Shown piece after piece: positions 4,301-28,404 of a stretch of 64,000 nt of DNA. Position numbers and translations under genes: made by a program. The first letter of the stretch is position 1. The number at the start of each line of letters is the position of its first letter. Source of the DNA: Rhynchopus sp. YZ270_cl-10 (Eukaryota); assembly GCA_964035575.1 (NCBI GenBank), contig OZ037834.1, positions 310,001 to 374,000 of the forward strand, written 5' to 3'. The notes under the pieces were generated by a model, which did not search any database, was not told where the DNA came from, and saw only the letters and a program-made list of their open reading frames with translations.

Positions 4301-4413
4301 CTTATTGTTAAAGACGGGAACATTCTTTTATTGCACGTCGGGGCACTTTAATTTCACTCCCCTAACAAATTCCTGTAGAAAAATAAAAACGGCAGTGAAA
4401 TAAAATAACTAAT

Positions 4414-4569
4414 TATTAGCGTGAAATAAAGTGCACTTTTTTTCACGCCCACGTAATTTTGGCTCACGAGTGAGAGTTTATTGCCCGAGCCGCAGGCGAG
4501 GGCAATAATAGAGCACGAGTGAGACAAAATACGTGGAAGTGAAAAAACGCACTTTATTTCAAACTAATA
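4414..4569 (+). repeat. Long imperfect palindrome (hairpin 1) of the YR element
   Basis: Arm tattagcgtgaaataaagtgc...tattgccc pairs with gggcaata...gcactttatttcaaactaata. Apex is ccc-GA-gcc-GCA-ggc-GA-ggg (4484-4502). Confidence 0.9.
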
Positions 4570-4583
4570 CGTAGTTTTGTTTT

Positions 4584-4641
4584 ACAAGTGAAAATGATAT
4601 TTTTGCTGGGATCCTTCACAAACGAGACGTAAAATAGAGTG
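4584..4641. repeat. Left inner inverted repeat flanking the YR ORF (partner 6000-6056)
   Basis: acaagtgaaaatgatatttttgctgggatccttcacaaacgagacgtaaaatagagtg matches the reverse complement of 6000-6056 (acatgtgaaaatgactttttgctgggatccttcacaaacggggcgtgaaataaagtg). Confidence 0.9.
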
Positions 4642-4859
4642 ATTTTATGAACAAAATGTGGGTACCTGTAAGTGAGAGTGTGAATGAGAGTAGGGGAACA
4701 TGTGAACATCAATCAAAAGCAGGGAAGGGGTTACTTTTTTTGATATATGCCTCCTATGACTGGTACTAATTACAAGATGTCACCACTCATCTCGCCTGTA
4801 GGGGGGGGGCAGGTGTATAGAGCATCACAGAAGGGGGGGTTTTTTTTTTGCACTCATGA

Positions 4860-5876
4860 TCATGGTTTGTTCTGTTGCACATTGATGTTAATCTTGACTT
4901 CTTGTGGCGTCTGAGTTGGGGGACTGTTGTTCTGTGTCAACAGCTGTGACATCGCAACTTGACCGGCCTGTGTGACTTCGGTGTACCTTTGTGGCATTGC
5001 CTGACTGACCCACCCATAGTGGCGTTGCATCTGTACAATAGATGCTCCTGCCTCAGCGGCTTGAGTCGCAGAAGACCTGCGGAAGCTGTGCCCAGTGTAC
5101 GAACCGTCCAGCGCAAGCACCCTCGCGACTTCTGCAGGTATGCCGTACATTTTGTTGATGCCAAGAGGTTGCACACGAAAGGTCCCAGTAGTAGTTCTGT
5201 CAGCTGTCGTCTTAGTTCCAGTGATGAAGAAGCGACCCTCCTGTGAAACTGGTGAGCGCCGGTTCAGGTACTCCTCCACCACACAAAAGTAGATGCTGTC
5301 TCTTGGTACCACAAACCTCCCACGCTCCATGTCGGCCTTTTTCACCTTAGCACAGTGCTGGTACGTGAAGAGGTATCCCACTGGTGATTCCTGATAATTT
5401 GTCATCTCAAGCATCAGTGCTTCTGTGCATCTCATTCCCGACAGAAAACACACCGCGACGTAAGCCTTGCGGACACACCAGTAGCAGTCGCTCAACTCGC
5501 TCATCTTGAGAAACATCTCCACTTCTCCCTTCGAAAACGTCTTGCTCTTCTTCGTCGATTCGTCACTTCCCCAGGTCTTCAGCAACAGCCCGATGCGGTG
5601 GTACTCCTTTAGTGAAAAGTCGAACTCCGTCTTGAACATAAAGTTGAGCTTAGAGTAGCACGACCATAATGAGCTGGCTTTGTAGCTGCGTTCTTCGCGC
5701 AGGTGTGTCAAGTAAGAGACCACATGTTCTTCTCTTGGCTGCTTCCGCCCCGTGATTTTATTGTGTTGTAAAAACTTATTCCACTCCGTTTTGTATGCAG
5801 TGCTTGACTTCAACCCTGCCAGAAGCTCGGTCTCATACAGATCCTCCATAGCCTCCTTCTTCTTGGTCCTTGGCAT
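4860..5876 (-). CDS. Tyrosine recombinase (phage-integrase family), Crypton-like transposase, 338 aa, apparently intact
   Basis: Catalytic motifs in the correct order: R (SGMRCTE), HxxR (YTGHSFRRSSAT), H/W (HYGW), Y (PQRYTE). N-terminal core-binding-like segment (TAYKTEWNKF...SSLWSCYSKL). Balanced-GC coding island in AT-rich DNA. No reverse transcriptase nearby. Confidence 0.93.
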   Translation of the reverse strand: MPRTKKKEAMEDLYETELLAGLKSSTAYKTEWNKFLQHNKITGRKQPREEHVVSYLTHLREERSYKASSLWSCYSKLNFMFKTEFDFSLKEYHRIGLLLKTWGSDESTKKSKTFSKGEVEMFLKMSELSDCYWCVRKAYVAVCFLSGMRCTEALMLEMTNYQESPVGYLFTYQHCAKVKKADMERGRFVVPRDSIYFCVVEEYLNRRSPVSQEGRFFITGTKTTADRTTTGTFRVQPLGINKMYGIPAEVARVLALDGSYTGHSFRRSSATQAAEAGASIVQMQRHYGWVSQAMPQRYTEVTQAGQVAMSQLLTQNNSPPTQTPQEVKININVQQNKP

Positions 5877-5925
5877 GATTTGTAGGGTGGAGTGTGTGGT
5901 TTTGTGACTGACAGAAAACAGTGAA
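5877..5925 (-). promoter_or_regulatory. Putative trans-splice acceptor and short leader of the YR gene
   Basis: Minus strand reads tttcactgttttctgtcAG then tcacaaaaccacacactccaccctacaaatc-ATG. The A/C-rich leader resembles those of the host genes at 19966 and 24265. Confidence 0.4.
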
Positions 5926-5999
5926 ACTTTTTTTCACGCCAGTGAAACTTTTTTTCACGCCTCCAGCGAAATTACTAAGAGCAAGCGTGAAAAAAAGCT

Positions 6000-6056
6000 C
6001 ACTTTATTTCACGCCCCGTTTGTGAAGGATCCCAGCAAAAAGTCATTTTCACATGT
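6000..6056. repeat. Right inner inverted repeat flanking the YR ORF (partner 4584-4641)
   Basis: Reverse complement of 4584-4641, including an exact run ttttgctgggatccttcacaaacg. Confidence 0.9.
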
Positions 6057-6176
6057 GATATAAAAGGCTTTATTTCTTTATTTCACTCTTTATTTCACTC
6101 TTTATTTCACTGCTCGATTTTTTTTTTTTTTTCGCAAAGACAAAATTTTCAGCCGAAAAAAAAAATTTTTTTTGGG

Positions 6177-6417
6177 CTCAGATGGACCCAAAAATGCAAA
6201 TAAAGCAAGAATTTTGATGTTTTGAGCATCACATATTTATTCCCCGGTCATTTTCTGTACAAAAAACCGGTTTGTATGGGCCAGCGCCTTAGCAAAAATC
6301 CGAAAAATCGGGAAAAAAAAATTTTTTTTCCCCGGAAAATTTCGACTCCTGGGTGGGGTCTTGGGGTACCGAAAAATGCAAAAAAAACGCAAAATTTGGG
6401 TATTTTGACCATCTGAG
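6177..6417. mobile_element. Possible MITE inside the YR composite (ctcagatgg...ccatctgag termini)
   Basis: Terminal 9 bp perfect inverted repeat extended imperfectly (ctcagatggacccaaaaatgcaaat / atttgggtattttgaccatctgag). No clear TSD. Confidence 0.35.
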
Positions 6418-6730
6418 GGATTTTTTCACGTGTTTCACCTTAGATGGAAGCGGATGCGGCTGGTGGGGGTGGGGTGTGCCCACCTACGGGAACAGTGCTG
6501 CCTGTGGAGTGGCCACTCCATCTGCCTCAATGGTGTTTAGGTCGGACATCAGCAACTCTGCAAGGTTGTGATACAGGAGATAAAGATATTTCGAAAAGAG
6601 AAAAATTTGAATGAAGATAACCCCAACACCAAAGGGAAGTTGATACGATGAACGTAAGCCTTGAGAACTAAGCGTTTAGCAGACCCCCGGGTTGTGAAAT
6701 AAAAGTGCCCCGTTGTGCAATAAAAAAATG

Positions 6731-6890
6731 TATTGTTGGTGTAATATTTTGCCTTAATTTCACTTACAGCCCCAAAACCCCTCGGAGTGGTATTTTTTCC
6801 CCTCGGGCTGCGCCCTCGGGGAAAAAAACCACTCCTCGGGGTTTTTTGGGGCTGTGCGTGAAATAAAGGCAAAAATATTACACGTCAATA
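6731..6890 (-). repeat. Long imperfect palindrome (hairpin 2) of the YR element
   Basis: gtgtaatattttgccttaatttcac (6739-6763) pairs with gtgaaataaaggcaaaaatattacac (6858-6883). Minus-strand apex is cccc-GA-gggc-GCA-gccc-GA-gggg. Confidence 0.9.
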
Positions 6891-8411
6891 ATATATATTA
6901 TTGATCCCACCTCCGATGCTATCAATTTATTGGATGCTTATGTTGCAATATTGTTTTTTTTTTTTGCGAATCTCTGTATTCTTCCTTTAGGTGATCCGAA
7001 AAAGCAGTGCGAACGAGAAGCTCAGGCTCACCTTCACAAAACGTTTACTTTTTTTTTGCAAAAAAAAAGTGTGCAATTTTTTTTCTTCTCCTCTTTTGTT
7101 TGTTTGCTATTTTCTCTCTTTGTTTGGATCTCTCTGTCTCCTTTTATCTCTCTCTCTCTCCAAGCTGAGGTGTTCCATCACTGACAGAAGGGGGTTTTTT
7201 AAAAAAAAAAAACGGGCAAACCAATGCTTTCTGTTCCTCTGAATTGAAAGAAATTGATTGTATTTTTTTATCCACCTGATTTTCTGCCAAACACCGCCAA
7301 AATTGGAGGGTCTAAAAATCAGGTGGTTTTATACCGTGCCTTCTTATCCATTCCTCCTTCTTTGTCAACGGATCACGTTCTGCGTATTTTCTTCATCTCC
7401 AGAGTCCAGACAAGCAAACAAAACAAAAAAAAATAAATAATAAAAAATGCACATTTTATTCTCTCCACAAATTTTTTAAAAAAAAATATGAAGTTCACTC
7501 CCTTTGCTGTTTCGATAACCAAAAGCAGAGTGGGTAAGGTGCCTTTGTCGTCCACAGTGATGTTTCTTTTTTGGCACACTACTGTATAATCGTTTACTTT
7601 GTCGCCCACATAATCTATCAACTTAGTTAATTGGCGTGTGACAAAATTGAACGATTGTACAGTAATCCTCAACTTCCATTTTTTTTCTCTCCAATAAAAT
7701 GATTCATGCGACCCTTGCAATTTTTTTTTGAAAAAAAAATTCTTATTATGCCTTGTGTTACAGAACCCCGTTATTTGGATAGGGGTGATTGTCGATACGA
7801 CAAAAAAAAAATCGGTACATAAAAATATGACAAAAAAATGAGTGTTTTTTTTTGGTGAATAACTGTCTGAACTGGCAGCTTTTTTGTTTGTTTGTTTACC
7901 TTTCATTTTTTAACCCCTATGGTGAGGGGTGTCTGACTGCCAGTGTTTTTCGACTTTTTATTTCTTCTTCTTTTTTGTGTGGAAAAATATTCAAAACTTA
8001 TTTGATGTGTTCGCATTCCTTCGAGTGTTCTCTCTGATCTTTTTTTGATAGGAAAAAAATGCCAAATTGTCTTGACAAAAATGAAAACTAAAAATGACTT
8101 TAAAATTGACAGTGCGTGCTCCATTATATGTTTGTCACCACGAAACAAGATAGAAGACTGCGTGGTTGGGGGGGGGGAGGGTTGTCCACCACCCCCCCCT
8201 ATGGGTGCACTAAAGGTTCACTGTCAACGAGAGTGCTTTTTTTGGATTTCATATGTCAATTTTTGTTTACCCATCCCCGCCCCGTTTTTTTTTTTTTTTT
8301 TACAGCACAACCATTAACCCTGCTCTTTGGTTTTGTGAGAGTGGTGATTGTTGCAATATTCTCAACATTAAAAAAAAAAAAAAATCCGTCTATATCTTTT
8401 AAGTACAATAG

Positions 8412-8466
8412 CCTTCGGGCGACATTGAGTACAGATCCTGCATTAGCAGGTGATTGTCGACACAAC
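8412..8466 (+). repeat. Hairpin repeat family D (also 9182-9260, 7755-7800, 14734-14776, partial 1735-1752)
   Basis: cgacattgagtacaga-[variable stem]-ggtgattgtcga, with closing stem cgaca/tgtcg. Confidence 0.6.
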
Positions 8467-10868
8467 AAAAAAACCAAATGCAGTCTACCAATGACTGTAA
8501 AAAGAAAAAGAAAATAAAAACTCCCGTACGGTGCTGTAGGAAATGAGTCAGCGACCTGTCAATATTGGCCCCCCCCTGGAGCACCACCGTAGCTTTTGCT
8601 TTTCTTCTTGTCCTCAAAAGAGGCTTCCTCTTCACAGGGCCAAGGTAGTGGGGAGCGTATTGTGGAGTAATAAAATATCAACACAAAATACTTTACGCAC
8701 AACAAATTTTCTCCTCCCCCGCCCCCGCCACCTCTCTTAACAAAACGCCACCAAACAAACAAAAAAAACAGAGCAAAATACAAAAAAAAAAAAACTTTCA
8801 AACATATTTCTTCACAAAACGTTCTCTTTTCGTTCTTTCTTTCATATGCGATTACTATTCAGAACGAAAAAAAAAACACGAAAAAAGAAAAAAAAACTCA
8901 CACAAAACAAAACAGAAAAAAAAGAAGCCGTGCTTTTGAGTCACACTTTATCCTAGCTCTGATGCACGCCTTATGGTTATAGGTTGTGTGCAATGAAGAG
9001 CAGGGTGTGGAATAGTTCCTAAAAGTGGGGGCATATTCCCATGGGATGTACCTTTGTGTAGCTCTTCAGAAGTAATTATATTATAGTCGTCTTGCAAAGT
9101 GTGTTTTATACAGTTTTCATTGGACAGTCTCTTGAAGAATTCGGAGGAATTTTTTTTTTTTTTAAGCAGTAGTACGCGAAGGCTTCGGACGACATTGAGT
9201 ACAGGTCTGTGTACAGGTCTGTGTACCACCTTTATTCCGGTAGGTGTCAAGTGATTGTCATGTCAAACAAAGAAAAAGAAATTCGAAGTCTTTTCTTTTC
9301 TTTTCCAAACGAAAACCAGAAAACGCACAAAAAAAATAAATACTCTTTTTTTTATTTTGATTTCAAAGCAAGTCTCTCTGCCCAAAGGCCTCTTGAATGA
9401 GGGGGGGGTATCTAAAAAGAAGAAAAAAAAATAAAGTCAACTACGATCGATAACTGGGAGGGGATTTCACCCCACAGTTTAGTCGATTACTCAAACCCTC
9501 AGTAACAAAAACGATTTATTTTTATTTTTGTTTTTTTATTTTTTTGTATGGGAAAATGAAAGAATTAAAAAAAAATGTGCTCTCTCGGTCTCTTTCTAAG
9601 GATTGTATTTTGTTGTATTTTTCTCTTGGCAGAAGGCAAAACGTGTCTTCTTGTCGATGATACACACAAAACAAGCATATAAGGAGGGGTATTGAACAAC
9701 AGCGTTCACACCCTTGTTTATATGCAGCATTTTATTTTTCCTTTTTCTTTTTTTTTTTTTTCTCTTTGGACAAGAGTGTAAAGATGTGTCTGTGGTGCTT
9801 TTCAGGGGGGTTTTCACAGCTTTTCATACCCACATGGTTGTGAAAGAGTTGTGAAAAAGTTTTGAAAAAGTTGTGAAAACCCCACCCCGTATAGCACCAA
9901 AAATCTGTGAAATAAACATATCCGAGCTTTGTTTTATTGTTTTTGCTTGCGCTTTTCATCCGGGGTTGGCATCGTACCGATGGGTCAGTCGGAGGGTGTG
10001 CCTGCATCAACAATCAACCATTTTTCTTTTCTTTTTTTCCTTTTCCCCCTTTCCCCTGCTTCCTCCCAGAATGTCCCACACACACCACCCCTCTACGTTT
10101 TATGCATTATGAAGACACACCTCACACAGACCCTCGTGGTCTTTCTCGAGATGTTTAAATAAAGCACATTATCACACAAATTCCTTCTTTTATTTGAGAG
10201 CTGTTAATATGACAGCCTGAGAGAGCGTTTTGTTCCCCTCTTCCCTTTCCCCCTTTTTTTTAAAAAGGGTCCCACAAACCAGTAAAAGAGATTTACGTAT
10301 GTGTACGTAACGCTTGAATTAAGAGAGAGAGAGAAAAAATTGATAGTGAAGACTGCCTGAATGGCAGCTACACTAAACAAACAAATTACCAAAAAAAGGG
10401 CATTACCGAATTCCCATATTTTTTAAAAAAAAGGTGGGAGGGAAGTAGTGCTAATAAAACCCCTGTTATTTTTCTCTCTCTGGGAATGAAATCATCGGAA
10501 ATTTATTTTTTCTGACAAAAAATTAGGGGGAAAGAAAGTGGAGTTGTTGCACACATAACAAAAGGGAGGCAACAACTCGTAATAATTCCAGAAGAAAAAA
10601 AAAAGTTATTCACAGAAAAAAAAAGAATAAAAACACAAACAAAACAATTTCCCAAATTCCCCTATTTTTCTTTTTTTGAACAAACAGTTTTCTTTTCTCT
10701 TTTCCCTTCTTCTTTCCTAGTCCCCTGTACATTTTCATGCAACCCAAAAATTCACCGCTGAGTGATTGTGTGGATGTGTTTGGGGGACAGAGACCCCCAA
10801 TTTTTCATTTTTTTAAAAATCTATTTTTCTTTTCACATTTTTTTTTTTTGCAACAAACAATAAGTCTA

Positions 10869-10995
10869 CAGTGGTTAAATAAATGGTACACGCCTAAAAG
10901 AAAGGCAGAGCTGAAAAATCGATGGCAAAATTAACTTTGGACAGAATTTTTCTTAGGCGGACAGTTTCTTTAGGTGTACCTTTCTTCAACCACTT
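10869..10995. mobile_element. Degenerate relative of the 18783 MITE
   Basis: ta-cagtggttaaa...cgcctaaa...aatcgatggc...ttaggcgg...caaccact shares these motifs with 18783-18872. Confidence 0.6.
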
Positions 10996-12580
10996 TATTT
11001 TTCTTTCTGGGTTTTTTTTATTTTATTTCCAGTGCCTACGACCGCCGATGTACGGTGATGCGTTTTGCACTTTCAACTTCTCTTTTTTTATTTTTCTGCT
11101 TCGACAAAGAACTAAACATGCAATAGCCTCACCATGAGGTCACTCATGTTTTCAAAAACTTTCTTTGAATTTATTTCTTTTGATTTATTTTTTTCTTTCT
11201 TTTTCCCTTTAGTCAGAGTGTCATCCCATCCCCTCCTCCTCCTCATCCCTCCCCCCCACACACACATATTTTATTCCATGTACTTTTATTGGAATGCAAA
11301 ATTACTCACAAATTTTTCAACCTATTTGAACCCCTTATTCAAGTCTACTCAAATTATAATACAAAAGCAACAACAACACAAAACTATTAGTTGAGTACAT
11401 CCTTCGGGTGTTTACACTAATAAAACCAAGTTTTTCAAAAAAAAAACAAACAAACAAAAGATTCTGGAGGAGGGTGTTCAAATTTCCCGTTTTTCCCTTT
11501 TCTCCCGTTTTTCCCTTTGTCTTTGCCACTTTTTTTTCCAAAAAAAAAAATTTTTTTTTTTTTTTGACAAGGCAATTCCCAAAGCGATGGCATTGGATGG
11601 CAGTATCCGAAGTCAGACCTCCGGAAATATTGAATCCTTAATGGACGACTTCAATGTGATCGCTGCCTTCTCCCTCTACGTCCCACCCTTCAAGAACACG
11701 GAGACTCGCAAGCTGCAAGTATTTTGAGGTTGTTTCTGCGAGCCCCGACCTATACCGTTCATCTTCGGAGATATGTACAGTGTGCGCACTACTTTCCGCA
11801 GGAAGAACGGGCCCATTTTGGGCTCCGACCTCAGAGGCCGTTTTCGAGGACAGCTACAGTGGGATATTTCGGTTCCTCAATTTTTTATAAAAAAAGCGAA
11901 AATCTGCCTATGTGCTTGAAAAATGCTGTGCATTTTTGGTAGAATTTTTTAAAAATTGCTATACTCCCCTATGACTGGACCCAACTCCCCTCACTCTTTT
12001 TTTGGTCAAAAACACCCCAAATTTTTCTACCTTTTTTTCCGTTTTTTCCGTTTTTGACCTTTTTAGACACCCTCCGGAGACACTATTTTTCCAAGATTTA
12101 TCCAGACATCCCTCACAAAAACAAACCAAAAAAAACAAGATTAATTTTTTTAATAAAAAGACGAAGAGACTGCGTTGGACCATATATCCATCCTGTAGTT
12201 AAAAATCTATTTTTCTTGGTATTCCTATCTAAACACCCTTGCCCTCATCCGCTCTTCTTTTCGCACTCCCCTTGGGGTATTGTTTTTGAGGTGTTGTAAT
12301 GTCGATTGAGATACTTAGACTCCTCGTACATTTTTATCTGTTTTTTTTTTTTTTTTGTAATGTGTGCATACTGCAATACACATTATTTGCCAAGGTTTTT
12401 TTTTTTGTTTTTTTTTTGGGGGATTTTTTTGGGATAAGATGGACTAAGCACAAAAGGCTTAGTCACCTTATCCATAGGTTGGTACTTAGGTTCAAAACTT
12501 TAAGTGATCTAATCAGACGCTAAGCACGAAAGGCTTAGCAAACTCGCACACCGCCAAACTTTTTCTTTCGGGTACTTTGT

Positions 12581-12633
12581 GCTTTCATCCGGATGGCTGG
12601 CATCGTACAGTGGGTCAGTCGGAGGTGCCTGCA
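12581..12633 (+). repeat. Hairpin repeat family C (also 9951-10006 and 17909-17964)
   Basis: ttcatccggatggctggcatcgtacagtgggtcagtcggaggtgcctgca recurs three times with few changes. Confidence 0.75.
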
Positions 12634-15232
12634 TTAATAACTTCACTTTTCTTTTTTGAAACAACGTTCTTTGAAAAAAAGGAGACGGCTTGCGTGGAGT
12701 TCACACAAAAAGAGGTGTCTGCACGTTGCCAATTTTTTTTTAAAAAAAAAATGTTACAAAATCCGTGTCCTAACATTGCTGTTTTTGTCTGTTATGCTGG
12801 TTTTTTTTTTATATTTTCTCTTCCATCTCCTTCTTGCTTCCCCTCCTCCCCCCCTTTCGTAATTGCATGTTAAAACTTTGCATAAAAAACCCCCTTCAAA
12901 ACGTGGCAGGACTCCTGTTCTTCCTGTTCTATCACACACCAACACCTTTTTTTTTTTGGTTTTTTTTTTATTTCCTTTTTTATGAACAATTTCCTTCTGG
13001 TTCAAAACCACCCCCCCACATACACCAGGTTTGTTTTATTTGCACAGAATTTCAACAAAAAAAAAGAGGTTTCCACGAAAACGTGAACAGGGGAGGGCGG
13101 ATTATGTGGATTACCCGTTCGCGGGGGGGTGCACGTTGTCACAAAAGTTTTCAAAGAAAAAGAAAAACTAAGCATATCGTAGTATGTACCCTGTTCCGCT
13201 TTCTTCCCTTTTTATTTGGAAATTATGTGAAAAATAATTTTTTTGTACAGAAACAACCGTTCTGGCACAAAAGAAAAGAACCTTTTTTGTGGGAGATGGT
13301 GGTCATAAGCAACTGACAGCAGCCTTTTGTCTCTTTTAGTATTGTATTTTCCTCTCGTTTTTTTTCTCTCTTTTTATGCCACACGGTGAAGTAGAAGTAC
13401 TTGACTTGTGGTTTTTTTTACTTTTGTGATTTCCCACCGTTGGCTTACAACGGTAAAGTCACAAAATCAAACGGAAAAAAAAAATACAACCTAACGAGAT
13501 GAAAGGTAGCTGAGATGCGATAGCCGTTGAACCAGGTTTTATTGAAAACTTCAGATTTTTTTTTTCCATTTTTTTTTCCCTTCATTTTTTCCTCTTCTTA
13601 CATATATGACAACATTGAGACACCGGGGGGGTTACATTATTTAGAAGTAGTGAACACCTTAACCATATCCCTTGTCTTTTCATTATACCTTCTATTCAGT
13701 AGAATAGTTAGTATATTGGTGTTCCCGAAAGGGCCCATATTGACAGGTCCTTGACATGTCCTTGACACAAGGTTTACAGGGGAAAATGACACACCCCCCC
13801 TATATTGACATGTCCTTGGCATGTCGTTGACATGTCCCCGACAGCAGATCGGTAACACCATATATGAAAAAAAAAATTTTTTGTGTCCCCTCCGCACCAA
13901 TGAAAAAGAACTGTCTCTGAAGATGTAGATACACTATGTTGAAAATTCCACCTCTTTTGTTTTTTTTTGCACGATCATTACAAATGCAAAAATCCCATAA
14001 AAGGTACGTGGTTTGGCTGTACTGTGATACTTTGCCTTATTTCATAATACATAATACACATTTCACAGTACAGCTACTACCTACTATAAGGGGTCCAGAT
14101 TCCCAGGAGGGGGGGGAAAAAAAAAATACATTTTCGTACAACAGAGGCGGAACGTCTTCTTATCTGCATGTATTGAGACAGTAATTTACACTAAAAAAAA
14201 TTCCTCAAAAAAAACAAATATTATCGGAACCATGGTGCGTATTGTTTGCTTGGGTAAATTTTTTTTTTGTGTGGAAAAGACCATGGGATGTTTTGTTTTT
14301 TTTTTTCTCTTTTTTTTTTGTACCCCCGAGTGTTCCTTTGTCTAGAACCTTATTTTTCGACGGAGATGGTGTGTGCAGCGCTATCGTGAATCACATTCAT
14401 TCCAATCTTCTTTTACCTATAATTTTTTTTTCCGACGCAAAAATAAAAATAAAAAATAATGTTGCACACATGTGCCACAGCAACTTCACGCATCCTATAT
14501 GAACATAAAAAAAAAGTAATTTTTTTTTTCCTTCTTTTTATCAGCACCACAACTCAATGTTACAGTTCAGCTTCCAGTATACTTTGGGAAAGGGGTAAAG
14601 AAAACTATGGTGGAGTTTTTTTTTGGGATTTTCCACCTGATTTTTTTGACCCGAGTTTTGGCGGTGTTTGAGCAGCGTTGGGCTACCGGGTCAGATCAAG
14701 GTGGGTTTTCAAAACAACAAAAAAAGAAACTATGTGTTACAGAACCCATCCTCAGACAGGTGATTGTCGAAACTACAAAAAACACCTGAGGAGAAGTGAG
14801 GAGGGAGGGGGGTTTTTTTTTTAAATCTCTCCCAATATTTTTTCAACTTACAAAGTACTACAATGAAATGCAATACAAAACAAACAGAGTAGCAAAAACA
14901 AAAACAAAAACAACAAAGTTGAAACAAACTTTTTTAAACCTCTCCCAATATTTCTTGGAGCACTGTTTTATCTCTTCACGCATATTTCATGTTCGCAGAG
15001 TGAACAGATCACTCAGTGGTGTGTGAAAAAAAAAAAAAAAGCAACAACAACACGATCATCAATTGAAAAAAAACAAAAAAAAAAAAACGTTTGCCTTCTG
15101 TGAAAGTAGTCTATCGTGTCATACATTCATTATTGTGCAAAAACTATTAAAAAAAAAAAGGAAAGAATAGTGGAGCCCATCCTCGGGTGTTCAGGTCTAC
15201 ACTAAACATTTCCTTTTTTCGACCTACCCCAA

Positions 15233-15356
15233 CCACCTGATTTTTTACCCCGCGTATAGGTGCGTACAGACCACATTACAGGCGCGTACACGCGCTTATA
15301 CAGTCCTATACGGTCCAAAACTCCCCTTTACGCGAGGTAAAAAAAAAATCAGGTGG
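15233..15356. mobile_element. MITE family with CCACCTGATTTT termini (also 7272-7326 and 14633-14704)
   Basis: ccacctgattttttacccc...ggtaaaaaaaaaatcaggtgg. Two shorter copies share the termini, and these two share aaacaccgccaaaa in opposite orientations. Confidence 0.6.
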
Positions 15357-16554
15357 GGTGGGCCAACCCCGAATCAAGATCCTAAATCCAAGCTATCCAA
15401 TTAGCCGTACCCTCCTCTCTTCGCACATCGCTTTGGTTAAGGATCTAAAAAAGCTAAACAGACACAAACACAAAATAGCAAAAACAAAGAGTACAAACAT
15501 AACAACAAACCTTTTCAAACCCCCCCCTCTTTCTCCTCCCGTATTTAGGACACATCTTTTTTGGGGTATTTTTTTTTAAGGTGACCAAGCACCGAAAGGT
15601 TCAGGTTTTATCCTTTGACCGTGCACGGAAACACATTCATTCCAGGAAAGAGTTTTTTTTTTTTTTTGTTTCGATACAAGACGGCTAAGCATTGTAGTGC
15701 CATCTCTGAGGCTTGTCTTTCTACTAAAAAGCTTTTTTTCTGTTTATTTCTCGTGGGAAGGTGTGAAGTGTATTGTGTACGATGAATGATAATCGCACCC
15801 ATTTTTTTTAAAAAAATCTACCCCATATTATTAACGATTTCTTTTTTATATATTCCGAACAGGAATGGGAAAAACATTCTTTTTATTGATCCCCTCCTAT
15901 GCTCTCAATTCATTTGATTGTATAATATTATGTTGAAATACTTATTTTCCGAAGCTTGCTCTAAAGGAGAAAAAAATAGTATTACCGATGCCAAATCATC
16001 CCTCAAACAGGAGGATTTTTTTTTGTGCAAATCAAACGAACCAACTTTTTTTACTTTGCCGATCCTACTATTTTTAAAAGGTGACCTAAAAACATACAAA
16101 AGACCTTAGGACCCATCTTCGCCAAATTTTATTATTATTATTTCTGCACCTTTTTTTTATCATTTGTTTTTTTGCCATGCCTTTCTTGTCCTGCCAACTT
16201 CTTTTGATTCTATCTTTTTTATTTCTAACAAATTTAAAAAACATAGAGCAACAAAACGAATCAATGGGTTTTCCACGCTTAGTAAAAAAGGCGGTGTGAC
16301 AAATCCCACTAAACGATACCCCTGGATAGGGTCAACGTTGTGCATAACTTCATTCAGTTATATTTGTTCTTCGGGGGGGAAATTGTTGTGTTCATCAGCA
16401 GTTACTTAGTGTTTTAGTATAGTGGAGTTCATCCTCGGGATGTTTGAGCTAATACAAAATACATAGTGGTGCACACTCTAGGGAGGCTACACTAATACAG
16501 TACCGGTTATCGGAATGTACCATTGGTAATCAGTGGTGGTGTGATTCAGGGGGT

Positions 16555-16675
16555 ACGGAGAACCCACGGACAACCCACGGAAGAACCACGGGGGAACCAC
16601 GGAGAACTGTTTCAGGCTATATTAAGATTTGCGGAGCACCTTCGGGAGAACCACGGGGGAACCACGGAGAATCCG
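16555..16675 (+). repeat. Short minisatellite of ~11 bp (g)gaaccacggg units in two blocks
   Basis: agaacccacgg-acaacccacgg-aagaaccacgg-gggaaccacgg, repeated again at 16646-16672. Confidence 0.6.
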
Positions 16676-16761
16676 TTTGGGTGATCACACCAAGTGGTGT
16701 TATTTTCAATGATGATACAAAAAAGGTGAGTGACGACACCTCCCTCTTTTTTTTTTGCCAG

Positions 16762-16870
16762 TTGTGTACATTTGAGGAAGGCAACTTCCTCTTTAGCCCC
16801 CCCCGCCGACTCCATTTTCTTGGAGCTTTCTTCAGGACCGTACTCTGTTTCCTTGAAGGAATGGTCAAAA
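16762..16870 (+). repeat. Diverged dispersed repeat shared with ~28128-28232
   Basis: aggaaggcaact...tttagccc...gccgact(c/t)cattttcttgga...gac(c/t)gtac...aagga occurs in both places. Confidence 0.6.
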
Positions 16871-16881
16871 CATTATTTTTT

Positions 16882-16918
<37 letters not shown>

Positions 16919-16927
16919 GTGAAAGAC

Positions 16928-17766
16928 CAGGGTATTTCCTAAATCCACTACCCGTCTCCCGAGATTTTTTCAGAAAAAGTTCCGCGCTTTTTTTGCAAGG
17001 GGGGTTTTCAGGTGTTCCGCGGTTTTTTTGCAAGGGGAGAGTAGTCGTGGGAAGGAGCACAGGGTGAGGTAAAAATGTCCGAGGAAAAAATATTCCGAAC
17101 CTCGGAGCCCCGATCTTGCAAAATAACGCAAAAAAGTCCGGAAAAAAAGTTCACAGGCCAAAAAAAAATTCCGCCTGCGGCGGGCACATTTTCCCCCTTT
17201 TTTTATGTTAGGGTAGCTGTATTTAAAGTGCCTATTTTTTGGTATTTTCCCGAAAAAAGTATGTTCGCTGTTCTGGATCGCTCCAATCATTCAAATAAAG
17301 CAGTTTTCGGAATTTTTATTTTCACCGATGTTGGGTACCGTGCGCCTGCGGCGCTGCCTGTTCCTACCAGTTTCTACAGGCAAACACTTGGCCCCTTTAC
17401 CTTACACTGACGGGTTTTGACCAAAACCAAGGACTTGTCCATTTCGGCAAATTGACCCCACCACAGAACGGGCGGATTCCGAAAATGCAAATGCCGGTGT
17501 TTTCGGGCATTTCCATGTTTTCAGGATCAGGGAGAGAAAATCTGGGTTGTGGGATTTACCTGGTCCCCTTTACCTTACACTCATTTTGACCAACACCAAG
17601 AACTTGGCCATTTCGGCAAAGTGACCCCACCACAAGCCGGGATTGGCTCGGAAATGCACCATAACTCAGTTTTCTGCACAAAAAACCCTAACGTTGCTCA
17701 GCGCGCTTTTTTTGCACCCGATTCCGGATTTTGAGATTTTGGGACCCCGATTTAGGAAATACCCTG
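16928..17766. mobile_element. Non-autonomous hAT-superfamily DNA transposon (839 bp)
   Basis: Perfect 18 bp TIR cagggtatttcctaaatc (16928-16945 / 17749-17766) and perfect 8 bp TSD tgaaagac (16920-16927, 17767-17774). Internal ~70 bp direct repeat at ~17392-17465 and ~17565-17633. No transposase. Confidence 0.9.
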
Positions 17767-18562
17767 TGAAAGACAGATAGGTGCAGAGAGGTGCACACAT
17801 CTTTTTTTGGTTTTTTCATTTTCCTTTTCTTTTCCCTTTCAAATGCTTTCAATTCTGTGAACTGAAAGTATATGAATCTAATTTTTTCCTGGCCGCAGGG
17901 TATGTTGTACTTTCACTCTGGATGCCTGGCATCGTACAGTGGGTCAGTCGGAGGTGCGCCTGTACCAACAACTGCCCGATCATTTTTTTCTCTTCTTCTT
18001 CTTCTCTCTCTCTCTCTCTCTTTTCAACATGATGTGTTTTGCGTGCTTAAAGCGTGTATAAGCTTTTTTTTCAATCCTCCTCTTCCCCTCCCCCCTCTTT
18101 GAAACAAACTTTTCAAACCCCCTTCTCCCTCTTTTTCTTCAAAGAAACCAACAAAAACAAAGTATAGCGGAGCATACTCTAGGGTGGCTACACTAATACA
18201 AAAAAAACCAAGTTTTCAAAGAAGAAAAAAACAAAAAACAACAATAACAGCAACACAAAGACACAACATTTTTTTTTTAGGTGACTATCCCTCATAGGCT
18301 TAGGTCCATCGTATAAACTTTTCTCTCTCTCTTTTTATTTTTTTTTGCTTCTCCTTCATTCTTTTTTGAAGGGTAAAAAACCAAAGGCAACTCTAAGCAT
18401 CCAAAAAACCAGAGATTTCCCTTTTTTGTCTCAAAAATTTACCCCCTTTTTCCCCCTTTGTGTGTCCTCACCCCCCCCACCCCCACCACCCCAGACCTGA
18501 AAAAGAATCCTTTGTTACCAGGTCAACCCTCCTACATACGTAGCAACAACAATAACAAAACA

Positions 18563-18610
18563 TAGTGGAGCACACTCTAGGGTGGCTACACTAATGCAAA
18601 CCAAGTTTTC
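18563..18610 (+). repeat. Hairpin repeat family A, representative copy (~12 copies)
   Basis: Consensus tagtggagcacactctagggtggctacactaatacaaaccaagttttcaaa. Copies at 1-46, 65-114, 1650-1700, 2133-2186, 11388-11440, 15168-15205, 16420-16458, 16464-16499, 18165-18220, 18563-18610, 19081-19140, 28258-28310. Confidence 0.85.
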
Positions 18611-18782
18611 ACAAAACAAACAAACTTTCAAAGCCCCCCTACATACCTCCTTCAGTACAGACGGAATAGTCAGAGGGGGACTACTATAGTGGTTCTCAAA
18701 AAAAAAATACAACAAAAAAGATTGATGAAATGACCAATGTTCAAAACATTAAGCATTACGTAATCTGATAAGACTACTAGTA

Positions 18783-18872
18783 CAGTGGTTAAACAAAAGT
18801 TACGCCTAAACTAATGGCGGAATTGAAATCGATGGCGGAAATTACTTTAGGCGGAATTTTGTTTAACAACTG
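18783..18872. mobile_element. Tc1/mariner-type MITE (90 bp) with TA target-site duplication
   Basis: ~28 bp TIRs cagtggttaaacaaaagttacgcctaaa / tttaggcggaattttgtttaacaactg, TA on both sides. An uninserted copy of the flank lies at 18891-18916. Confidence 0.85.
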
Positions 18873-19245
18873 TAGTTGCTATTCGTTGTCATCTAATAAG
18901 ACTACTAGTAGTTGCCAATTCGTCCAAATGGCTAGTGTTATATGACGTAGTGTAACACTAATAGGTTAACAAAAAGTTTTCGTTGCGACTATAGTAGTTC
19001 CACTTCGCAGTTCTCCTGACTGGCCTCCGTCGTGGAAAAAAAAAATGCGGCTACTTCATCGACCCTACGATAAAACTAATTAGTGAATCGCACCCTCTTA
19101 GGGGGTGCCTACACTAATATCAAAACCAAGTTTTCAAAAAAAAAAAAATTCTTCCCCATTTTTTTCCCTCCTCTCTCTCTTTTCCCTTTTTAAAGATGTG
19201 TATGTATGCGAAGCATATTCATCTCCAGACCTTTTTTTTTTTTCA

Positions 19246-19281
19246 AGGTGACCCTAAGCACAGAGAGGCTTAGGTTCATCT
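19246..19281 (+). repeat. Hairpin repeat family B, representative copy (~9 copies)
   Basis: Consensus aggtgactaagcacagagaggcttaggttcatc. Copies near 4038, 4197/4260, 6989, 12438, 12520, 15579, 16079, 18279, 19246. Confidence 0.75.
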
Positions 19282-19864: not shown

Positions 19865-19965
19865 CACTTTCCAAGTTTACCTTTTCGTTTTCTTGTGCGT
19901 TTCTCCCGCAATACATCTCCACACAGGTACAGTACTCTCCCAGCATCACCTCATAAACAACCACA
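19865..19965 (+). promoter_or_regulatory. Conserved pyrimidine tract + AG leader (putative trans-splice acceptor), shared with 24154-24264
   Basis: ttttcttgt(g/a)cgtttctccc...catctccacAGgtacAGtact...AGcatcacc...caaccaca-ATG is conserved between the paralogs, while sequence further upstream is not. Confidence 0.5.
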
Positions 19966-22787
19966 ATGAGCGGACTCGAGGCACGTTTCATTTTTAACTA
20001 TAACGAGGCTAAAAAGACCGCGGCTCAAAATTCCGAGGCTAAAAGTAAGAAGGCTAAAAGTACCGAGCAGGAACGCGCCAGACCACGGCACATGTACCAC
20101 TTCAAATCCTCGGATGCTTGGAACCCAAACAACTTCAAAACTGATATCAAGGCTATCCTGGCTTGCAAGGAATTCACCGACCTCGTGCGACAACTGCAGT
20201 ATCCTGCTGGGGTCGAGTTGCTCTGCACGTTGCGCCAGAACAACGAGATCGACGACAACGCACCAACGGAGAAGATCGTAAGGCTGCTGCTGACAGAGTT
20301 CATAAGGAAAGACGGTGAGCTGAAGGGGAGACAGCTGCAGTGCAACACAAATGTGTTCCTCGCCCGCGCAGAGCACTGCAAGTTTTATAAGGAACTCTCT
20401 GAAGGCACATTGGTTAAGAATTCAAAGATATTCGCGAGCCTGCACCCGACCCTGAAACACCCCATCAATGCTCAAGGGTCACTGCCCGAAGAGGATGGGT
20501 TCATGCGTGTGCAATTCGAGAAAGAGTTCCAAGAAGACAGCGGCGTGGAGGGCATCGAAAGACGCGCAAAGGAAAAGTACGGCGAGAACCCCGGGCAAGA
20601 ACTCATGAGCTTTGAGGCGCGCTGGACCAAGGAGGGGAAGATCAACTTTGAATTCAAGCTGCCCCTCAGCGGGGAAAGTGTAACGAACGAGGACTTCGCA
20701 CACCTGCCGTGCCCTGTCGCGAAGGATAGGTTCAACTACGACGTACACGTGCTCCCCGTTGTGTCCACGCCAGAGCAGTTCTTCGAGGCATTCGATGATG
20801 CGCCACAGAATTGGAACACTGTCTACGTGGACGACGAGCTTCAAGGCAAACTCAATGACGCTTACCTGAAAAATAACGACGTAGTTGTCAAGGAGCGCCT
20901 CATTGTGGTGACTGTGGCGCACAAAGACCGCAAACACTTGGAAGTCACTTACACTGTGAAGGAGAGCAAGCCTGGGGATCCGACCCGCATCTTTAACCCC
21001 GTCGATGAAGCAAAAAGCCTACTGCAGCGCTCCCTTGTGTCCGGCATCAAATGCCAACGCGATCACAACCACAATATCAAGACTTGTTCATATTATCACT
21101 CGAAGGAGAAAGCCTCCGACATCATCAAGGAGGTGCGTCGCGGGCAAAAGTACATCGACGCCGACGCCAAAAATGACAAAAACCCCACCGGGTTCAAGGA
21201 CTATATGTGTCGTGGGTATTCTTGGCTGTGGGGGAACATTGACAAGAACTTTGCTGGTAAGAACTATTTCAGGACGGATGTGGCCATTGTGTTCAATAAC
21301 AACAAGAAGGAGACTGGTGAGTGGGTGGTGACACACCGAAGAGCAGCTGAAATGACAGAGAGAATCAGCACAGATGGGGAATCAGTTATGGTGTATGAGA
21401 AAAAGACGGAAACCCTGGAAGAAGGGCTGAAAAGGTCTTTGAACACAGTGCAGGGGATGTACGAACTTCTCAGCGACGACCCAGACTTGCTCGACAAACT
21501 CGACTGTAAGTACCTCACTCGGGCGACTGTCCGTTACCCCCCGCCGGTCCCTAAAGCGATACCGTACTGCCGATTCTACGGAGGAAGGCTGTCCCAGCTC
21601 TCCAACAGTCTGTCGTTTGCACTTGCCAAGACCAAAGAAGAGGCGGATAAACTGAAGGTCAGCCTTACGTCCTCGAAGTGGGGAGGTGTGAAGAGGGATA
21701 CATCAGGACACACAGCGAAGAGTTTCCTGCGAAAGCTCTGGGGAAGACGGTTGGGTGGATCTGGAGGTATCAAGGTAAGCCGTACTGTAATAACAAAGCT
21801 GCAGACTTGTTTGTGTTCTGCGACGTAGATGGGTACAGCGGCCTCTGGTTCGGAAAAAATAAGCCACCAGACAGCGTGCAGACGTGGGCTAGACAGGACC
21901 TAGTGAACGAATTCGAGGACGAACTCTCTTCCTTGAAGGAAGCCCGCCCTGCACAAGACAAATCCTCGACCGCAGGACCACCGATTTCTTCAGCGAAGGG
22001 CGCAAGCTCTGCGCAAGACATATCTTCCTCTTCACAACTTCCCCAGAAATCTTCCTCAAAGCAAGCCGGGAAAGCAGCGTACTCACCAGCCTCTGCACTA
22101 GACACATCCTCGGCCGCAGAACCACTGTTTTTTTCAGCGGATAAAAACCCGTCTCCCACTACACGAGCGGGGCAGGATGCTTCCCGGAGAGCTTCCCAGG
22201 GAGATTCCCAAAAGCGAGCCCAACGATTGGTTTCTTCAGCGAAGGGCGCAAGCTCCGCGCAAGACACATCTTCCTCTTTACAAACTCCCCAGAAATCTTC
22301 CTCAAAGCAAGCCGGGAAAGCAGCGTACTCACCAGCCTCTGCACGAGACACATCCTCGGCCGCAGGACCACTGATTTCTTCAGCGAAGGGCGCAAGCTCC
22401 GCGCAAGACGCATCTTCCCAGCAGTCTTTCCCACAGAAGCAAGCCGGAAATGCTTCATCCCCCTCTCCAGCAGCGGACTCATCAGCCTCTGCACATGCCA
22501 CATCCTTGCCAACCACTGCAGGACCAGATGATCTGAAGGTGTGCAAGGGCGTTATTAACGGCCATCTGGAAGAGCTGGAGGACGTCCTCCTATCCAAGGA
22601 GAGAGTCAACACGATGCAAAAACTACTGAATGAACCGGGTATGTCCGAGTTGAGGTGCATAGCCATGGGTCGGCAACTTATGTTGAACGAATGGGAGGAA
22701 TGCTCTCGCAGAGACTTGGTAGCTTTAATTAAAGGCACACTGTCTGATATGCGCAAACTGTGCCCCGGTACCTCGTACCTACGTTAG
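19966..22787 (+). pseudogene. Paralog 1 of an uncharacterised protein family (~940 aa if repaired), broken by a 1-nt frameshift at ~21694; pseudogene or sequencing error
   Basis: ORF 19966-21828 aligns to the 962 aa paralog up to SSKW. Homology continues in ORF 21678-22787 (GYIRTHSEEFPAKAL vs GYIRTHKAEFPAEAL). DNA gtg-aag-ag-gga-tac vs paralog gtg-acg-aag-gga-tac. Confidence 0.75.
21985..22460 (+). repeat. Internal coding repeats in paralog 1 (SSAKGASSAQD...KQAG)
   Basis: ~143 bp block at 21985-22127 repeated at 22231-22373, with a partial third copy from 22375. Confidence 0.8.
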
Positions 22788-24127
22788 TTGTGTCCTTCCC
22801 CCGCTTTTGATTTGTTTTCTTGTTTGTTTGTTTTTTTTCTATCATATTTTTTGTGTTCCTCACTCAAATACGTGTGCCGAGTGAGCCTATTCCCCTCCCC
22901 TTTTTGTTCCTGCTTTCCGAAAAAGTGGTCTGCACATTCTTAACTACCACACACTAGATATCTCGTTCGCACGTTTCTCAGGAATGAGCGATGATTTGTT
23001 TGCAGCTTCACTATTCTTTATGCATATGCCGGAATGTATGACCAACAACTCTGGTCCTTTCCTTGGGCGACTGCGCGAAATTATGTGATTTCTAATTTTC
23101 ACTTCCCAGGCACATTTTCCACCTGCGGCATATAATAATGTCGAGGAACGGTTGCAAGTCCACATACCCTCACCCCCTCTTTCGAAGCCACATCACGTAG
23201 GCATGGACATGTATAGGTCACTGTGCTTGTTCACCTCTCTCTCTCTCTGTTGTTGGTGTTGCTATAGCTTCAGCGCATTGACGTTATTCTTTTTCTTTCA
23301 AGTTTTCTTCTTCTCTATTCTTTTTTCTGTCATAACACGGGTGGTATCCGGGTTCAGATTCCAGGTAATCCCAGGAAATTTCCAGTATTTCAGATCTGGA
23401 ATTTTTCTCGAGTAAACGGGTGTACGGGAGGCTGTGGTTACTTCATTCGAGTATCCGTGAGCATCTGTGCACTGTGAGGGTGATTGTGGGAATAAATCTG
23501 AGAACCCTGGAATCAATCCTGCCCATGTTATTTATTATTTTTTGACTTTTGTTTGCCTCTTTTATGTAACCCACCATGGAGTGGCGAGGTGGCAGTAGAG
23601 CCAAAGCAAACATAGGCAGCTCACAGAGACACATGTCCATGACGAGTCTTTGTGACGTTGTGATATGTATTCGTCCACCACCCCTCGCCACTCCACTGTC
23701 TTGTATCGCATTGTTTACCCTCTATCGCCATTCATTACAAGCTCAGTGGTACAATAAATGTGCACATCTTCGGTGTCTGCACTAATGCCAGCCTCCGATT
23801 ACCACCTCTTTCAACAAAAAGGAAAAACTGTTGTGTTCACTTTGAAAATAAACAAATGTCAACCCACCCATCCCAACATCAAGGGTCCTCATATGCCCTG
23901 ATGTCGGGTAAAAAAGGGCCCTTGCCGTCTGGTACAGCATGCACACCCCTCAGCCATCCGCAGCCATTGGGACCACTCTTGGCATTTTGTGCCCTCTTAC
24001 AATCACGTCCAAATGGACTTCCTTGACGAAGCATGCTTGGGTGTTATCTCTCAGGACTCTCTCTCACTGCATGGTCTGGGGCATGTGGACCGTGTCAACA
24101 GCATCTTTTGTGTGCACCCAATGACCC
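22753..24127 (+). repeat. Segmental duplication copy 1 (partner 28405-29820)
   Basis: Both copies start gcaaactgtgccccggtacctcgtacctacgttag and end ccaatgaccc. Highly similar throughout with small indels. Confidence 0.92.
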
Positions 24128-24264
24128 AAGGTGTGGTCCTTCGGAGAGTTTTCTTGTTGTAGCACTGTCCAGGGTTACTTTTTTGTTTTTCTTGTACGTT
24201 TCTCCCACAATCCATCTCCACAGGTACAGTACTATCTTTTAGCATCACCACACAAGCAACCACA

Positions 24265-27153: not shown

Positions 27154-28404
27154 ACACCTAGGCCCCGCCCTGCTCTGGTTTTGTTACATCGATCGAGGGA
27201 CGTGCTGTGTCCTACCTGATGATGCATATCATAATATAGTATTATACAACGGGCGGAGGGGGTGGGGGAGAAAAACTGAAGGAAAAAACGTCCCGCCAGT
27301 CCAGATCCTTATTCTCGCCCTTTTTCGCTAAAACCAGATGCCCCCTCATTTTTTTTGACATTTTTTAAACCTGTATTTTTAAGCGTTTTTATTTTTGTAC
27401 ATCCTTTCGTGTCTGTAAAATGGACAATGAATGATTAAACTAGTTTTAATCATTGCTTGGGTGGCGAACTACTAAGTCCAGAATATTCAGCACACGTTTT
27501 TCTCCTTTTTTCTTTCTTTTTTTCTGTGTTTGCTTGAAGTTTTCTGTCTGATACACAAACAGGATGTGACTGGTATTTGTTTGGATTGGTGGCAATTTAC
27601 GGAATACTTTCCGTATATACGGCAGCCATCAAGACGAAGACTCTTTAGGTTACCCCTCCCCCTGGTGAGGGGAAATGTTTATTTATAAAAAAACACCCCT
27701 GGTGAGCAGACAGGACATATCCTGTAAGGACAAAGGAAAAGGGGGGGAGAAAACTTTTAGTAAACACGTAGTATTTGACAAAATGCCCGAGACCCTCGTG
27801 AAAAGTCGCGCGTTCTGCGTATCCACCTGCCCCGCTTGTTTTCCCTCCTCTCTGTTCCCCTTTGTGCTCCACAACATTTTCTGTACTTCAGGCAAACACA
27901 TTCAAACCGTAAATCTGCGTATTTACCGTTATCAAGTCGAGGGGAAAAAAAAAAAAAAAATAGAAATAAAGTCCACACCCACGAGGCGAGCGTTTTGGCA
28001 GGCGCTTGTAAGGACAGCCAAAAGACTTGATTCTGAAACAGAAGTGGTGTGGAAGCGAACAACAAACAACCTCAATTTTTCCTCTCCCCGTTTTCAGTAT
28101 CGAGTCTCTCGAGCATTTTTTAATTTTGTGTGTGCACGTTTAGGAAGGCAACTAACTTCCCCTTTAGCCCGCCGACTTCATTTTCTTGGAACTTCCAAGA
28201 CTGTACATGCGCTGTTAAAAGGAAGGGTAAATGCGTTTCAAAAAAGAAAAAAAGTTATAGTGGAGTTCATCCTCGGGTGTCTACACTAATACAACCAAGT
28301 TTTCAAAAAAAGAAAAAAAGAGCAACATTATCGAAATGAGCCCACATCCTTGTTCTCGCCTTTTTCCTCGCATTCTTCTTTGCACGCCCTTTTTATGTTG
28401 TGCT

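Follow-up and report, generated by a model that had tools for sequence, protein, structure and literature searches.

Cryptons are described, in the portions of the literature on which we draw (Kojima and Jurka 2011, PMC3212892; also PMC13465315 and PMC8969392), as lacking terminal inverted repeats, with direct repeats of 4-6 bp in the fungal and oomycete groups and none in the animal groups; the part of PMC12130899 that concerns Crypton ends adds nothing to this. In the relevant section of PMC3212892 their transposition and amplification are proposed by analogy only, and some CryptonV families are reported to insert into simple repeats (Repbase Reports 2012, as quoted in an extract of PMC8869645). 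DIRS retrotransposons contain an internal region, the ICR, that is complementary to both ends and has been proposed to serve as a template during cDNA synthesis (sections of PMC5633606, PMC6681497 and PMC8969392). Among bacterial systems, the CTX phage and integrons integrate a folded single strand by means of a tyrosine recombinase (YR), one pair of strands being exchanged (extract of PMC3089051), and SE elements form strand-specific copy-out circles, leaving no empty donor (extract of PMC9345347).

In this study, we have described two nested elements in a stretch of 64,000 nucleotides, referred to as the window, in which an empty copy of the target repeat is also present. Our explanation as a whole, which combines the empty repeat copy, the nested elements, likely movement via a folded single strand and the lack of a fixed 6-bp core, has in our estimate a probability of roughly 60%. 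The window is eukaryote-like, being AT-rich with long homopolymer runs to 20 kb and carrying GC-rich tandem arrays beyond; those at 41800-57300 and 59400-63900 have periods of 975 and 933 bases and recurring sets of open reading frames. A dispersed family of 60-90-bp repeats, with nine copies in 31 kb, is found in the same DNA:

1-56, 1621-1720, 2116-2195, 11357-11459 and 16418-16499: copies of the 60-90-bp repeat family
18145-18244, 18542-18625, 19103-19148 and 28236-28325: further copies of the same family

The insertion is framed by three intervals, which belong to another short dispersed repeat:

15867..15948, plus strand: empty copy of the short dispersed repeat, a paralog of the outer element's insertion site
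4308..4327, plus strand: target DNA, left half of the interrupted repeat copy, matching 15867-15882 and the consensus found upstream in empty copies from four runs
6898..6965, plus strand: target DNA, right half of the interrupted repeat copy, whose first six bases, TTATTG, equal the element's first six

A first-pass annotation had placed TTATTG at three sites and had proposed that joining the flanks of the insertion through a single copy of it recreates a diverged version of the 15867 site, and both statements hold. The hexamer starts at 4328, 6898 and 15883, and 4316-4333 followed by 6904-6933 aligns to 15867-15916 with 42 of 46 aligned bases identical, the other 4 being mismatches, and with 6 gap positions, the likeness extending to about 15948. 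When the joined 126-mer was compared with the AT-rich part of the window, the best local score was 62, a value reached by none of 200 dinucleotide shuffles (mean 29, maximum 42), and the score of 49 obtained by the right flank alone was likewise reached by none of the 200. Anchored at the core, the left flank finds an equally good match at only 19 of 16,721 positions and, among positions preceding TTA, at 1 of 281, namely the 15867 site. These shuffles and position counts indicate a genuine match to the left as well as to the right of the joint.

Within the window there is no third copy of the repeat. Contigs of four public runs (X2, X6, X5 and X3) were aligned to 6840-7000, and at least 5, at least 4, at least 7 and at least 8 contigs in the four runs, among the matches listed, match from 6898 onward. 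Directly upstream of 6898 these contigs carry a consensus that ends like the left flank 4308-4327, so that the left and right flanks are adjacent in other copies of the repeat, as they are at 15867. Integration into a dispersed repeat with multiple empty copies, as had been suggested, is thus borne out, and 15867 is an empty member of that repeat. The interval 6900-6965 is an abundant short repeat, with a depth in X2 of up to 57,000 (a summed depth, not a copy number) against 117 on unique DNA. An Rfam search of 3600-17000 at E 0.1 returned no match, and the target repeat therefore corresponds to no known RNA family. Two further observations concern these surroundings. The 7-mer TTCCGAA flanks the empty copy at about 15853-15859 and about 15946-15952, either as a target duplication of the short repeat or by chance, and the interval 4011-4284, just left of the element, is a very abundant short repeat (X2 summed depth 173,000), pieces of which recur at 15569-15607 and 19236-19281.

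It had also been considered that 15867 might be the footprint left by excision of this very element, since scarless YR excision would restore an empty site. However, 10 of 52 columns in the alignment of 15867 with the joined flank are not identical, and elements are far fewer than empty copies, the empty state being the usual one for a high-copy repeat; such a footprint is extremely improbable. An empty allele of the locus, that is, a joint of 4327 to 6898, does not appear among the joints listed (15 of 37), and the filled right junction has single-copy depth in X2, X3, X5 and X6; excision is neither demonstrated nor contradicted by these two results. The empty site is in itself ordinary, and its value lies in fixing the ends of the element. 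What it fixes is the outer unit, with ends at 4328 and 6897; the first-pass annotation had read these as the ends of a YR element, whose own ends the empty site leaves unmarked, as the joint between 4403 and 6062 reveals. The components of the insertion are as follows:

4328..6897, no strand assigned: outer element, non-coding, of 912 bp once its insert is removed (4328-4405 plus 6064-6897)
4406..6063, minus strand: inner element of 1,658 bp, autonomous and YR-encoding, placed in a run of six A
4860..5876, minus strand: intact tyrosine recombinase gene, 338 aa (PF00589, E 3.3e-9, above the cut-off)
6150..6480 (approximate), no strand assigned: further high-copy repeat inside the outer element, with an X2 summed depth of 23,000-74,000 and many variants

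Seven public runs carry the stretch or parts of it, copies being visible as contig pieces, and the run that covers it best may be the window's own source. In X2, the contigs of the YR part (4402-4781, 4867-5571 and 5597-6064) have depths of 6,050-6,263, those of the outer part (4327-4403, 6536-6801 and 6822-6900) of 2,485-2,834, and the unique left flank has a depth of 107. The corresponding copy numbers, about 57-59 for the inner YR element and about 23-27 for the outer element, are estimates, as they are contig-depth ratios from runs of unrecorded kind. A joint of 4403 to 6062, which skips 1,658 bases, occurs at a depth of 2,834 in X2, 1,762 in X6 and 9 in X7, and as its depth in X2 equals that of the outer element itself, most outer copies are without the YR insert. 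The YR element is nested in the outer element. The idea that the composite of about 2.57 kb is the mobile unit has to be abandoned, because 4403 is joined to 6062 in contigs from three runs and the depth of the YR part is about twice that of the outer part; for the same reasons, 15867 marks the ends of the non-coding host and not those of the YR element. In X7, the YR element is found with a different left flank, and the outer element with different flanks beyond 4322 and beyond 6902; from run X1 (share 0.06) come three short YR-element pieces with a depth of 2.

Apart from the YR gene, the outer element and its flanks (4300-6950) contain no stop-free frame longer than 111 aa. The left flank 4320-4327, which extends the inverted repeat, was considered as part of the element and rejected: 4327 is the first base of the shared contig, one further copy departs from the window sequence at 4322, and the empty repeats carry 4320-4327. 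A diverged copy of the 6150-6480 repeat flanks another insertion of the YR element in X7. At the right end, over 6856-6902, the X2 depth climbs from 2,656 to 12,000 and diverged contigs join at 6856, which indicates that the last 30-45 bases of the outer element are common to related families.

The recombinase of the inner element is conserved at R149, K177, H263, R266, W289 and Y298 in at least 90% of 34 aligned relatives, and an identical 338-aa protein is present on 37 contigs, which points to a young family. At E 0.001 it is matched by 1,770 cluster representatives, the best others with 25-40% identity; the sole named relative from a eukaryote, a hypothetical protein, comes from the beetle Ignelater luminosus, and searches among phages and viral contigs found no relatives. 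A word-index protein search with the recombinase returned the window's own cluster only. By profile, the nearest solved structure is Cre, with weak matches to XerD and IntI4. Within the 34 aligned members, Pfam Phage_integrase is found in 33 and Phage_int_SAM_4 in 4, and GCR1_C and DUF3504 had no match. Pfam gave no informative match for 13 other open reading frames of the window. Two tandem copies of a long open frame, of 620 and 962 aa and with 76% DNA identity, occupy 19865-24127 and 24163-29820; their downstream DNA is 90% identical, and the first frame has a weak match to a CCCH zinc finger.

The ends of the two elements have the following parts:

4328..4362, plus strand: short terminal arm of the outer element, pairing with 6689-6723
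6689..6808, minus strand: ICR-like segment of the outer element, an inverted copy of the end-to-end junction with a 7-base mismatch at the joint
6722..6902, no strand assigned: terminal hairpin of the outer element, an 80% palindrome whose inner arm is half of the ICR-like segment
4407..4576, no strand assigned: terminal hairpin of the inner element, a 75% palindrome
4495..4655 (limits approximate), plus strand: ICR-like segment of the inner element, an inverted copy of the end-to-end junction
5999..6063, plus strand: far terminal arm of the inner element, pairing with 4575-4642

In both cases the arm beside the hairpin pairs with the far end of the element (4575-4642 with 5999-6065 in the inner one, 6694-6731 with 4320-4357 in the outer one), and the ICR-like segment, made up of the inner arm of the hairpin and the adjacent arm, is an inverted copy of the joined ends. 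The computed junction aligns to this copy continuously across the join, over about 120 bases in the outer and about 155 bases in the inner element. The junction of 6897 to 4328 that had been predicted for a circle is therefore in the right register, and it is confirmed independently, as the internal inverted copy of the outer element aligns across the computed join. The duplex formed by the outer junction has a 7-base bubble at the joint, with TTATTG starting the paired arm beside it; in the inner junction duplex the mismatches are scattered for one strand and form a bubble for the other, and the related locus L044 shows a small bubble only. In the minimum-energy fold computed for each complete element, whichever strand is taken, both ends are paired on the internal copy; like the junction duplexes, this restates the sequence, as any inverted repeat folds in silico. 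A perfect 18-base palindrome at 6886-6903 spans the right junction and consists partly of target bases.

The ends of the two elements do not match each other, each matching its internal copy instead, and the inner and outer junction regions align weakly (scores 49 and 53). What they have in common, also with two related families, is a far end that closes in ATAA and a hairpin end that opens with T; an exact 22-base end pattern had 0 matches in metagenome contigs. The motif GTGAAAT has 10 occurrences in the 2.57 kb, compared with 3 in 12.5 kb of background. These features bear on whether the outer element, which encodes nothing, might be a non-autonomous element of another class, either of Helitron type or a MITE with a TTA duplication, the recombinase serving the inner element only. 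TTA is indeed the minimum shared stretch, and Helitrons of this kind have hairpins, short asymmetric inverted repeats and a 5' T, and insert upstream of T (section of PMC8969392). Against such an origin, the outer element shares the junction-copy layout, the end signature and the GTGAAAT motif with the YR element, and its ends, unlike those of a MITE, are not inverted repeats of each other. We regard membership of another class as very unlikely; the outer element is probably mobilised by a YR.

The layout is also present in related loci. A metagenome scan yielded 77 loci with a related YR, in 67 clusters by DNA likeness. Long hairpins (at least 85 bases, at most 1.5 kb from the gene) were found near the gene in 33 of the 77, the remaining 44 having none. 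After block shuffling of the 77 loci there was no such hairpin, and of 11 other tiles from the window 1 had one. The lone long hairpin in the control tiles is a 94-bp palindrome at 18781-18874, outside the elements, which resembles 10867-10950. In the arm test, the 50 bases beside the hairpin had to find a complement beyond the gene better than in 99 of 100 shuffles, and an adjacent arm that pairs with the far end was detected in this way at 19 of the 33 hairpin loci (16 of 28 sequence clusters), lying at most 8 bases from the hairpin in 18 of the 19. Some passes are weak: L043 has a score of 21, the arm of L056 lies 28 bases from the hairpin, other palindromes overlap in L040 and L025, and for L070 the score is equalled in 3 of 63 local controls. 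The remaining 14 loci failed, many of them on short contigs; for two of these (L044 and L045) other members of the family pass, and in L063 the other hairpin shows the layout. Related loci span 1,484-2,518 bp with one gene, so that 1.5-2.5 kb leaves no room for a reverse transcriptase. The hairpin is upstream of the gene in 16 of the 19 passing loci and downstream in L021, L046, L056 and the window's inner element, and the direction of the gene relative to the ends is therefore not fixed. We conclude that the junction copy is very probably a selected trait of the family.

At one related locus (L044, positions 1-60), the far end of the element is joined directly to its hairpin end. Judged from the assembly, this joint may be that of a circle, of a head-to-tail tandem or of an assembly path, and it carries no information on the strand involved. 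A head-to-tail junction would be expected if the element were a double-stranded circle on which the junction and its inverted copy acted as two recombination sites, with inversion during replication giving rise to tandem arrays. The two FRT sites of the yeast 2-micron plasmid provide the analogue for inversion during replication; the geometry is the same, and the high, young copy number would also fit. The two sites, however, differ in the central 7 bases, and differing central bases block ordinary reciprocal YR exchange, as established for Cre and Flp. Moreover, the sites are about 90 bases apart from centre to tip, no inversion joint is present among the joints listed (15 of 37), and neither a replication origin nor a replication protein was seen. 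Amplification of this kind is, in our view, quite improbable.

The first-pass annotation had taken TTATTG for a fixed 6-bp crossover core, a reading with which the copies disagree. The length of the terminal repeat was counted in six copies of two related families, these being the copies with both ends and ordinary flanks (L053 and L065 are without an end, and in L044 the junction replaces the flank), and amounts to 4, 0, 3, 5, 4 and 0 bp; in the window it is 2 bp for the inner element and 6 bp for the outer one. Other outer copies leave the window's flank after 6902 (X7) or, in a copy that is 93% related, after 6901 (X5). The contig common to the outer copies ends at 6900, after TTA, in X2 and X6, although this break is weak evidence by itself, since related families sharing the last 30 bases could cause it. 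At least one other copy shares all six bases of TTATTG, because the window-specific contig starts at 6874 in X2. In the copies of the outer family seen, the shared stretch is thus at least TTA and reaches 4-6 bases, and the family may have a short homologous core. The rule common to the elements is a fixed joint, with ATAA at the far end and T at the hairpin end; targets that are A/T-rich and similar to the element's end are loosely preferred. For the inner element, the shared contig ends suggest A-run targets in all copies. Pairing of the left flank with the internal junction copy was tried as a guide to the target, as 7 of 8 bases match in the window copy; six flanks of a related family fit at the first base only (A in 5 of 6), and the guide is unsupported.

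The same data bear on the classical Crypton model, according to which a double-stranded circle is excised and re-integrated by two strand exchanges at a TTA..TTATTG core, the internal junction copy having some other role, for example as extra binding sites. Described Cryptons are defined by 4-6-bp repeats (part of PMC3212892), a 6-bp repeat flanks the window copy, and at least TTA is common to all X2 and X6 copies. Yet repeats of 0-5 bp in six related copies and of 2 bp in the inner element, together with the divergence of other outer copies after 6901 or 6902, are at odds with such a core; the model leaves unexplained why the junction copy stays in register across 16 clusters, and by itself it does not raise the copy number. 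We consider it unlikely.

Our preferred explanation invokes a folded single strand, a route proposed here on the basis of assembled contigs, to which we give slightly less than an even chance. One strand of the element is predicted to fold so that both ends are paired side by side on the internal copy. A displaced single strand would be the substrate, its ends being joined by the recombinase into a single-stranded circle while the donor stays in place (copy-out). The circle junction, paired with the internal copy, would then constitute a double-stranded recombination site with a mismatched centre, and one strand exchange beside the mismatch would insert the circle into an A/T-rich target resembling the element's end, the product being resolved by replication. 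TTATTG would represent the paired arm beside the mismatch, and the six-base match at the target a good fit to the loose preference. The outer element would borrow the window's YR or a related recombinase. The folded-strand model would account for the kept register of the copy, the central mismatches, the repeats of 0-6 bp and the gain in copy number. Models of CTX phage and integron integration need some pairing next to the cut, and against the folded-strand model two of the six related copies, those with 0-bp repeats, have no pairing there.

A broader, tentative proposal, which we hold with less confidence than the route itself, is that widespread eukaryotic YR-only DNA transposons might multiply by copy-out via a self-folded strand, with the junction copy clamping the ends and forming the integration site. 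If this were true, Crypton-like elements would need neither reverse transcription nor a fixed core in order to multiply, and the ICR of DIRS retrotransposons would have been inherited from such DNA elements rather than being a cDNA-repair device. The present family is well suited to these questions: it is young, its 338-aa recombinase is intact, its ends are placed exactly, empty sites exist at two levels, and a non-autonomous partner is present, all of which makes Crypton movement testable with a 1.7-kb construct. The junction copy provides a sharp prediction, namely that without it mobility should fail.

Compared with known systems, the elements agree with Cryptons in the broad sense, as an intact YR is the only coding capacity and the elements are dispersed and multi-copy, with empty and filled forms. 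As far as the extracts of PMC3212892 describe Cryptons, the single YR gene, the lack of a reverse transcriptase, the eukaryotic host, the non-autonomous partners and the absence of a classical target duplication are points in common, and the lack of a C-terminal domain is shared with CryptonA and CryptonI in the portions of the descriptions considered. Unlike the Cryptons in these accounts, the elements carry a terminal hairpin of 130-210 bp, an internal junction copy and repeats that vary by copy. The 4-6-bp terminal direct repeat of CryptonF and CryptonS, alike in all copies, is not found, nor, among 34 members, the GCR1_C domain or DUF3504-type YR of CryptonF and CryptonA; and at variance with the 2011 definition, a terminal arm and a hairpin are paired with an internal copy in both elements. 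The inner element, in its A run, occupies a simple repeat as some CryptonV families do, a likeness by description alone, taken from an extract. In the portion of the literature searched, the combination of hairpin and junction copy was not found in a YR-only element, and the Repbase CryptonV reports may already record it.

The systems that the proposed mechanism would resemble are CTX attP, integron attC and the SEs (extracts of PMC3089051 and PMC9345347). According to these extracts all three are bacterial, CTX uses the host XerC/D at dif, and SEs have four genes; the window's recombinase has weak profile matches to XerD and IntI4. With retrotransposons of the DIRS-1 type, as portrayed in the sections cited above, the elements share an internal region near one terminus that is complementary to the extremities of both ends, integration of a circle by a YR and the lack of a target duplication. 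They differ in having no gag, reverse transcriptase or RNase H and no long inverted terminal repeats; with no reverse transcriptase, membership of DIRS fails, and the cDNA-template role proposed for the DIRS ICR cannot apply to the window elements. All together, the sequence features point to a pair of Crypton-like transposons in which the internal junction copy is DIRS-like and a fixed core is lacking, and which link DNA-only YR elements to the end structure of DIRS retrotransposons.
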